Virus record (IMG/VR): IMGVR_UViG_2602041568_000011
Reading direction: 5' to 3' (one strand)
Source of the DNA: a virus
Taxonomy: Duplodnaviria > Heunggongvirae > Uroviricota > Caudoviricetes
DNA length: 5,365 nt
Position numbers and translations under genes: made by a program. Of the stretch, positions 1,103-1,313 are shown in pieces (the stretch's first letter is position 1; the number at the start of each line of letters is the position of its first letter). A model generated the notes under the pieces. That model did not search any database. It saw only the letters and a list, made by a program, of their open reading frames with translations, and was not told the origin of the DNA.

Positions 1103-1111
1103 GGGCGCAGC

Positions 1112-1140
1112 ATAATAACGTTACGAAATCAATGTTGCAA
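1112..1140 (-). promoter_or_regulatory. Sigma70-type promoter directly upstream of the tRNA cluster: TTGCAA, 17 bp, TATTAT (minus-strand sense)
   Basis: The -35 TTGCAA is at plus 1135-1140 and the -10 TATTAT is the complement of 1112-1117, with an exact 17-bp spacer. The predicted start is a few nt upstream of the mature 5' end of the first tRNA (1102). Confidence 0.55.
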
Positions 1141-1207
1141 GCATTCAAAAATCACCCTTATCTCCTCCACTAGCGCATTCACCATGTCTATCCGAGATAA
1201 GTGGTAC

Positions 1208-1233
1208 AAAAAACCCGCTTGTGGGCGGGTTTT
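1208..1233 (-). terminator. tR'-like intrinsic terminator ending a short leader transcript downstream of the Q gene
   Basis: Minus-strand RNA forms AAAACCCGC-CCACAA-GCGGG followed by UUUUUU (plus 1208-1213 is AAAAAA). Flanking A/T runs extend the stem. Confidence 0.55.
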
Positions 1234-1284
1234 GTTTGCTTTTGCCATCACGTACAAAATCGGCAAAATATCAGATTTGCATGA

Positions 1285-1313
1285 AATATATGCCTTTCAA
1301 TCTACTTTTGCAA
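1285..1313 (-). promoter_or_regulatory. pR'-like late promoter overlapping the 3' end of the Q gene: TTGCAA, 17 bp, TATATT
   Basis: On the minus strand the -35 TTGCAA is at plus 1308-1313 and the -10 TATATT is the complement of 1285-1290, spacer 17 bp. The predicted start near 1278 gives a leader of about 70 nt ending at the 1208-1233 terminator, which is the pR'/tR' arrangement of lambdoid phages. Confidence 0.5.

Follow-up and report, generated by a model that had tools for sequence, protein, structure and literature searches.

The stretch of DNA between a Q-like antiterminator gene and a cluster of four tRNA genes in the virus record IMGVR_UViG_2602041568_000011 (Caudoviricetes) raises the question of how the late genes of this phage are switched on and which of the known Q systems this control follows. 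The DNA analysed here, referred to below as the window, is 5,365 nucleotides (nt) long, and all of its genes are located on the minus strand. It spans the transition from the early (nin) region to the late operon in a lambdoid prophage. The original prediction, made from the sequence alone, placed a promoter immediately after the Q-like gene (P1), a terminator about 70 nt further on (tR'), a second promoter with the same −35 hexamer ahead of the tRNA genes (P2), and another terminator behind these genes. All four elements hold on the minus strand and at the positions originally given (1285-1313, 1208-1233, 1112-1140, and 561-592, respectively). The region is very probably the late-gene regulatory module of a lambdoid Escherichia coli prophage with a Q protein of the phage 82 type. 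The element is a typical allele of phage-82-type late control followed by a tRNA promoter of the 933W type and, as such, belongs to a known system.

The Q gene (1297-1986) encodes 229 amino acids if read from the ATG at 1986; the mechanically called open reading frame (ORF) starts with the GTG at 1992. The encoded protein matches only one Pfam family, PF06323, with an E value of 8.6e-92 over 217 of the 220 profile positions. This family is that of phage 82 Q and one of three mutually unrelated Q families (PMC9388147). No match to the families of the lambda and phage 21 types, PF03589 and PF06530, was obtained for the window Q in the Pfam search. The protein shares 77% identity with Q of phage 82 (X92588) in a gapless alignment and 74% identity with the 'Q82-like' Q of phage 434. 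A sequence search among solved structures found no relative of the window Q, and no 933W-type Shiga toxin 2 (Stx2) phage was present among its tblastn matches. Of the three phages initially named for comparison, phage 82 was the appropriate choice, whereas phages 21 and 933W possess Q proteins of other families. The mechanism of Q82 itself was named as an open question in a paper of 2022. One further candidate for a characterised relative, QuuQ (YdfT) of the K-12 prophage Qin, was dropped, since it displays no similarity to the window Q. The Qin locus (L308, 4490-5242) contains neighbours of the same kinds as the window, namely YdfU upstream and EssQ and YdfR downstream, together with an unlike Q. 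As judged from these genes, the two loci are an example of Q-module swapping.

The promoter scan located the −35 hexamer of P1, TTGCAA, at positions 1308-1313, within the last Q codons; the phage 82 Q record also closes with this hexamer. It is followed by a 17-nt spacer (1291-1307) and by the −10 hexamer TATATT (1285-1290), which was identified in the same scan. The Q stop codon TGA occupies positions 1299-1297, so that the Q ORF includes the −35 hexamer together with 10 nt of spacer sequence. The promoter, which had been placed immediately after Q, thus overlaps the end of the gene. The predicted transcription start (+1) is A1278, seven nt past the −10 hexamer. From this base, the window reads AAATCTGATATTTTGCCGATTTTGTA, with TG at +6/+7, TATTTT at +9 to +14, GCC at +15 to +17, ATTTT at +19 to +23, and T at +25. 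An extended −10-like element, TGaTATTTT, is present at +6 to +14, and the pause motif reads TGATATTTT. The −10-like element and the discriminator GCC make up the predicted sigma-70-dependent pause element (1262-1273). Its position and the analogy with phage 82 pR' predict promoter-proximal pausing at +25 (U) and +26 (1253-1254).

These features can be compared with those published for pR' of phage 82. In that promoter, the Q-binding element (QBE) is located between the −35 and −10 hexamers (PMC4914094). The −10-like pause element contains an extended −10 motif, the discriminator GCC at +15 to +17 precedes an AT-rich stretch, and pauses occur at +25, with a 3' U, and at +26 (PMC5001585). The window matches the published sequence features position for position: a start at A1278 puts GCC at +15 to +17 and U at +25. 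The IsrJ boundary in Rfam would set the 5' end 3 nt upstream of A1278, and the start is uncertain by about ±3 nt. By analogy with phage 82, the QBE is expected in the spacer at 1291-1307. The qut site, for which positions 1270-1313 had been proposed, would by the same analogy cover approximately positions 1309-1249 (−31 to +30) and comprise the QBE between the −35 and −10 hexamers, the pause element at 1273-1265, and the pause site near 1254.

The phage 82 record X92588 stops at the Q stop codon and shows the TTGCAA hexamer there; full-text and supplement literature searches for the sequence of 82 pR' returned nothing relevant. Viral contigs were searched with the last 43 nt of this record in order to reach the sequence beyond Q. 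Two viral contigs contain a Q gene identical to that of phage 82 in 690 of 690 nt. The sequence downstream of this gene, TTGCAA-AACTGGATTAAAAAGCA-TATATT-TCATAT-AAATCTGATATTTTGCCAATGTTGTACG, fits the published numbering exactly. Between the −35 hexamer and +28, the window is identical to these loci at 55 of 63 positions (87%), including all positions from +1 to +17. Of the eight differences, four lie in the 17-nt spacer, the putative QBE, and two among +18 to +28. It is plausible that the spacer divergence fits a Q protein that is itself 23% diverged. The two systems share the Q family PF06323, TTGCAA, the 17-nt spacing, TATATT, U at +25, and an intrinsic terminator within about 80 nt. No sequence relationship exists in the remaining leader or in the terminator stem, and the leader length is 71 nt in the window versus about 79 nt in the 82-identical loci.

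The survey for relatives of this module included 303 loci of the Q82 family (Q 58-100% identical) from Escherichia, Shigella, Citrobacter, Klebsiella, Raoultella, Buttiauxella, and viral contigs. The loci were anchored on the Q stop codon only and yielded 146 distinct variants. TTGCAA or TTGCAG was present in 131 of these variants and TATATT in 108. According to the listed counts, TGATATNNT occurs in at least 119; position +25 is T in 125. The best-conserved part across genera is TATATT-N-AAATCTGATATNNT, which is non-coding, extends from the −10 hexamer through the pause element, and keeps a constant distance to the Q stop codon. In 115 of the 132 anchored variants, a GC-rich hairpin with a T-run is present whose end falls at +50 to +88, most often either near +52, which corresponds to short leaders like that of phage 434, or at +70 to +80. 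Among almost identical relatives, substitutions are found in the terminator loop but the stem is preserved; one locus shows recombination right after the terminator. The block consisting of P1, leader, and terminator travels with Q of the window type, while the block of P2 and tRNA genes also occurs with unrelated Q genes. The E. coli locus H121, considered as a possible case of another Q type in front of the same terminator, P2, and tRNA genes, turned out to be a degraded prophage with a 36-amino-acid 'antiterminator' fragment and was uninformative.

Phage 434 (OL657226) is an example of a relative with a short leader. In addition to its Q protein, it shares with the window the same promoter, a pause-like element TGGTATGTT, and an annotated terminator 50-75 nt past Q. 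It differs by a leader of about 54 nt, which lacks the intervening hairpin, and by the absence of tRNA genes and of P2 downstream, where membrane-protein morons are located instead.

The tR' hairpin at 1233-1210, AAAACCCGC-CCACAA-GCGGGUUUU, has a folding energy of −13 kcal/mol (z = −3.8 versus shuffles) and is combined with a U6 run at 1213-1208. Its end is 70-71 nt from A1278, which agrees with the distance of about 70 nt proposed originally. In form, tR' is terminator-like on the plus strand as well. The second intrinsic terminator (592-561), located between the tRNA cluster and the holin gene, consists of CCCGC-UUUU-GCGGG and a U-run (−11.5 kcal/mol, z = −3.9). The pattern CCCGC-N3-8-GCGGGTTTT occurs in the window in these two terminators only. 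The common CCCGC...GCGGG core pointed out at the outset is thus real, but a special meaning was rejected, since it is not conserved: relatives in the Q family possess other terminator stems, such as GCCCGAGG...CCTTGGGC and GCCTCGCC...GCGGGGC. The shared core is most simply explained as the usual GC-rich stem of a terminator.

Positions 1278-1204 (75 nt), which contain the predicted leader of about 71 nt, fold into the terminator and a weak 5' stem-loop (z = −3.8 overall). The minimum free energy fold of the 5' stem-loop (1240-1268) pairs UUUUGCC with GGCAAAA. A conserved structure at this place was not upheld, and the stem-loop is retained as possible only. Folded alone, it gave z = −0.9, with a mean of −1.2 over 83 variants. 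Covariation among 28 co-linear variants was no better than in shuffles (62/500), and RNAalifold found no consensus for this stem-loop in 42 variants.

The Rfam search revealed a match of the leader to isrJ over the full length of the model, with 24.5 bits versus a gathering threshold of 37; isrK also matched over the full length and below its threshold. IsrJ of the Salmonella prophage Gifsy-1 (RF01393) resembles the window module in TTGCAA-17-TATATT, in AAATCTGATAT / AAATCTGATATCGT, and in the presence of a hairpin and a terminator. The Gifsy-1 isrJ locus and the window are identical at 77 of 116 aligned positions, and the RNAs are 74 and about 71 nt long. Differences include the sequences of the middle part of the RNA and of the terminator, and the position of the Gifsy-1 module, which is located after anrP and not directly after antQ. 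Virulence phenotypes have been reported for IsrJ. By sequence comparison, the window leader is a homologue of IsrJ. Since IsrJ was detected as a 74-nt RNA (PMC2330248), the prediction of a short leader RNA has a homologue that has been seen experimentally. The pR' module at isrJ (NC_010392; locus L310, 1500-1612 and 660-780) also includes the last Q codons, ATTGCAAAACTGGATTAA. The isrK-orf45-anrP segment looks like an insertion between the Gifsy-1 Q gene and its original late promoter; IsrJ would therefore be the leader of that promoter.

Short RNAs made between pR' and tR' are documented for lambda (6S RNA), for phages 21, phi80, 82, and P22, and for Stx phages (StxS; PMC7547250). The pR'-qut-tR' region of lambda and that producing StxS follow the logic predicted for the window: a late promoter that is always active, a pause close to the promoter that depends on sigma, the loading of Q, and a short RNA in lysogens that ends at a terminator. 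Both differ from the window in the Q family, PF03589, which is unrelated to PF06323, and in the lack of any sequence similarity. In these regions, the pause is at +16/17 and not at +25, and the leader is 194 or 258 nt long and not about 71 nt. The idea of a late promoter with a short leader that is terminated unless the polymerase is modified by Q, put forward in the original prediction, is supported by homology to experimentally studied elements.

Homology to these systems suggests the following course of events. RNA polymerase with sigma-70 would initiate constitutively at pR' (−35 at 1313-1308, −10 at 1290-1285), near A1278. Sigma-70 would then re-bind at TGaTATTTT (+6 to +14), and the complex would pause near +25. 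If Q is absent, the polymerase should leave the pause and terminate at tR', at the U-run 1213-1208, which would yield a leader RNA of about 71 nt. Q produced from the upstream early operon would bind the QBE between the −35 and −10 hexamers and load onto the paused polymerase. The modified polymerase is expected to pass tR', to continue through the tRNA cluster and across the second terminator (592-561), and to transcribe the genes for lysis, morphogenesis, and structural proteins. P2 (1140-1112) would transcribe the four tRNA genes independently, and transcripts made by unmodified polymerase should stop at 561-592, ahead of the holin gene. If so, lysogens could make the tRNAs without expression of lysis genes. 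All of these transcription events are deduced from sequence relationships, as are pausing, Q binding, readthrough, and the role of the second terminator as an insulator.

P2 is composed of TTGCAA (1140-1135), a 17-nt spacer, and TATTAT (1117-1112), followed by the GC-rich discriminator GCTGCGCC. GC-rich discriminators of this kind are typical of stable-RNA promoters under stringent control, and the same mode of regulation may apply to P2. The −10 hexamer ends 9 nt ahead of the first tRNA gene, which starts at 1102, and neither hexamer varies in 78 close relatives. The stretch that separates tR' from P2 (1141-1207) contains a hairpin, CUUAUCUC...GAGAUAAG (z = −3.2), and is variable among relatives, with substitutions and a 16-nt indel, which in relatives is present as an insertion just downstream of the hairpin.

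The assignment of P2 as a tRNA promoter agrees with the annotation of phage 933W, whose record lists 'pT; putative tRNA promoter' directly upstream of ileZ. The −10 hexamer, the GC-rich discriminator, and the tRNA gene of 933W align with those of the window. Identical P2 hexamers and an identical spacer were found in Stx2a_F349, a Stx2a phage with an unrelated Q of 162 amino acids. Differential RNA sequencing of the Sakai Stx2a prophage revealed a primary start driving the tRNAs between tR' and stx2AB (PMC7547250), which is the place corresponding to P2. By alignment, P2 is a homologue of the 933W pT promoter, in agreement with the suggestion of a second promoter for the tRNA genes, and is referred to below as pT. 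The common features of the window and the ileZ-argN-argO regions of 933W and Sakai Sp5 include the promoter between tR' and the first tRNA gene, the identical or nearly identical −10 hexamer, discriminator, and ileZ, and a predicted terminator, annotated past argO in 933W, in the same relative position as 561-592 in the window. In 933W, by contrast, the −35 hexamer is TTGCAG, the spacer is another one, the later tRNAs are Arg and Arg versus Lys, Thr, and Gly, and stx2AB follows the tRNA genes in place of the holin gene. Q of 933W was not matched by the window Q in the tblastn search mentioned above and is likened in its record to Q of H19B and DLP12.

The four tRNA genes (793-1102), identified with ARAGORN and Rfam, have the anticodons CAU, UUU (Lys), UGU (Thr), and UCC (Gly). 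The first of these (1027-1102) is reported as Met (CAT) by ARAGORN. It is, in fact, not a tRNA-Met but ileZ (tRNA-Ile2, CAU), identical to 933W ileZ at 76 of 76 positions and annotated by PGAP as tRNA-Ile. The product is probably a lysidine-modified tRNA-Ile2 that would read AUA.

The segment from tRNA-Gly to the second terminator (555-795, minus strand, 240 nt) folds into three long stem-loops with −83 kcal/mol (z = −5.6) and contains a perfect 15-bp inverted repeat, TTATGAATGATCGCC...GGCGATCATTCATAA. This segment had no match in the Rfam search, and a literature search by sequence returned nothing. Convergent pairs of small RNAs (sRNAs) have been reported at sites where inserted cargo ('moron') genes behind pR' border on the following conserved ORF of the phage (PMC4104026). 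A relationship of the structures at 555-795 to such pairs is possible.

Several observations weigh against the assignment of P1 and tR' to a late-control module of the phage 82 type. By consensus score alone, both promoters are unremarkable: each scored 9/12 in a generic scan, which detected 16 promoter-like sites in the window versus 8.2 ± 2.7 in shuffles. The exact pattern TTGCAA-N17-TATWWT is limited to P1 and pT in the window, both on the minus strand, versus 0.01 occurrences expected, but it was picked after the fact. The promoter scan is uninformative by itself, and the case therefore rests on homology and conservation. Here, too, some reservations apply. The −35 hexamer and most of the spacer are Q coding sequence, and their conservation partly reflects coding constraint. 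The start sites, pausing, and termination ascribed to the window element all derive from homology, and the score of the isrJ match is below the gathering threshold. The 82 pR' sequence used for comparison was deduced from contigs with an identical Q gene, and the difference from it at 4 of 17 spacer bases means that cross-recognition by Q82 itself is not implied.

The low promoter scores and the partly coding position of P1 could be taken to mean that 1208-1233 is a plain terminator for the early operon, of which Q is the last gene, that P1 is a chance match, and that P2 is the sole genuine promoter. The window is AT-rich and has many promoter-like sites, and tR' is bidirectional in form, as would suit such a terminator. 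A plain terminator would not, however, need TATATT-N-AAATCTGATATNNT, which is conserved at a constant distance to the Q stop codon; it would also leave the match to the experimentally defined features of 82 pR' unexplained, as well as the transcription of IsrJ from the homologous site. We consider this explanation highly improbable. An alternative or additional role can be envisaged for the −35 hexamer. TTGCAA at 1308-1313 is palindromic and might be half of a CII-type box on the plus strand (1308-1321), belonging to a paQ-like antisense promoter that would damp Q during the establishment of lysogeny. The sequence TTGCAACACTTTGC is a perfect TTGC-N6-TTGC, overlaps the pR' −35 hexamer, and is antisense to Q. 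At the homologous position, the record of phage 434 lists a CII binding site and paQ −35, and phage 82 has TTGCAATATTTTGC at the same place. A single TTGC-N6-TTGC match compares with 0.41 expected by chance, however, and the box is coding sequence, whose second TTGC is lost in many relatives from Klebsiella and Citrobacter. No plausible −10 hexamer is present at the expected distance in the window sequence, and the CII region of the prophage lies outside the window. Taken together, these points make a CII-dependent promoter here unlikely.

A further explanation is compatible with late control of the phage 82 type and concerns the product rather than the switch: the pR'-tR' transcript may mainly represent an sRNA gene, whose RNA would act in trans on host genes in lysogens in the manner of IsrJ or StxS. 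In favour of this are the homology to IsrJ, an RNA with effects on invasion and effector translocation in Salmonella, and the example of StxS, a by-product of pR'-tR' that acts as an Hfq-bound regulator. The leader terminator has a U6 tail after an A-rich stretch, the z-score of the whole leader is low, as given above, and the wide distribution of the exact module in complete E. coli genomes (see below) points in the same direction. On the other hand, the leader beyond the pause element is poorly conserved between lineages, which fits a by-product better than a conserved seed, and the 5' hairpin is without solid support. We regard a primarily regulatory role of the transcript as possible, though not the expected outcome. 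The related proposal, in which the leader (about 71 nt) would serve as a trans-acting regulatory sRNA, constitutive in E. coli lysogens and perhaps directed at host or virulence genes, is doubtful at present and is based on analogy with these two RNAs.

The gene content of the window agrees with its place in a lambdoid prophage. Upstream of Q are located, on the same strand, genes for an interrupted FkbM-type methyltransferase (4317-5203, Pfam), a DUF968/YdfU protein (2355-3404), and RusA (1983-2342). The first late (lysis) gene, downstream of the second terminator, codes for a holin S of the phage 21 type (285-500, Pfam PF04971) and is followed by a gene for a YdfR/DUF1327 protein (2-280). 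In relatives, the holin gene is followed by those for YdfR, lysozyme, Rz, and terminase, which gives the overall gene order Q, tRNAs, holin, lysozyme, Rz, and terminase. Near-identical DNA was found in induced E. coli phages. The exact module is carried by approximately 1,170 of 5,426 complete E. coli genomes, or about a fifth, including those of E. coli O157:H7, O55:H7, O111:H8, and enteropathogenic E. coli E2348/69. Strain 20Ec-P-124 also possesses a module that is nearly identical. In the methyltransferase gene, a pentanucleotide repeat, (GCTGG)x8 on the plus strand (4741-4782), separates two ORFs (4718-5203 and 4317-4709). This looks like a slipped-strand, phase-variable, or frameshifted gene.

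The significance of these results beyond annotation is small. The late promoter, qut, tR', and the tRNA promoter, which are unannotated in the matching phage and genome records, can now be placed at base resolution in a very common type of E. coli prophage. If the leader does act in trans, it would be one more prophage sRNA in the regulatory networks of pathogenic E. coli. For Salmonella, the comparison suggests that IsrJ is the leader of a late promoter of the Q82 type. The tie to the phage 82 paradigm may be useful for engineering or inducing prophages of this kind.

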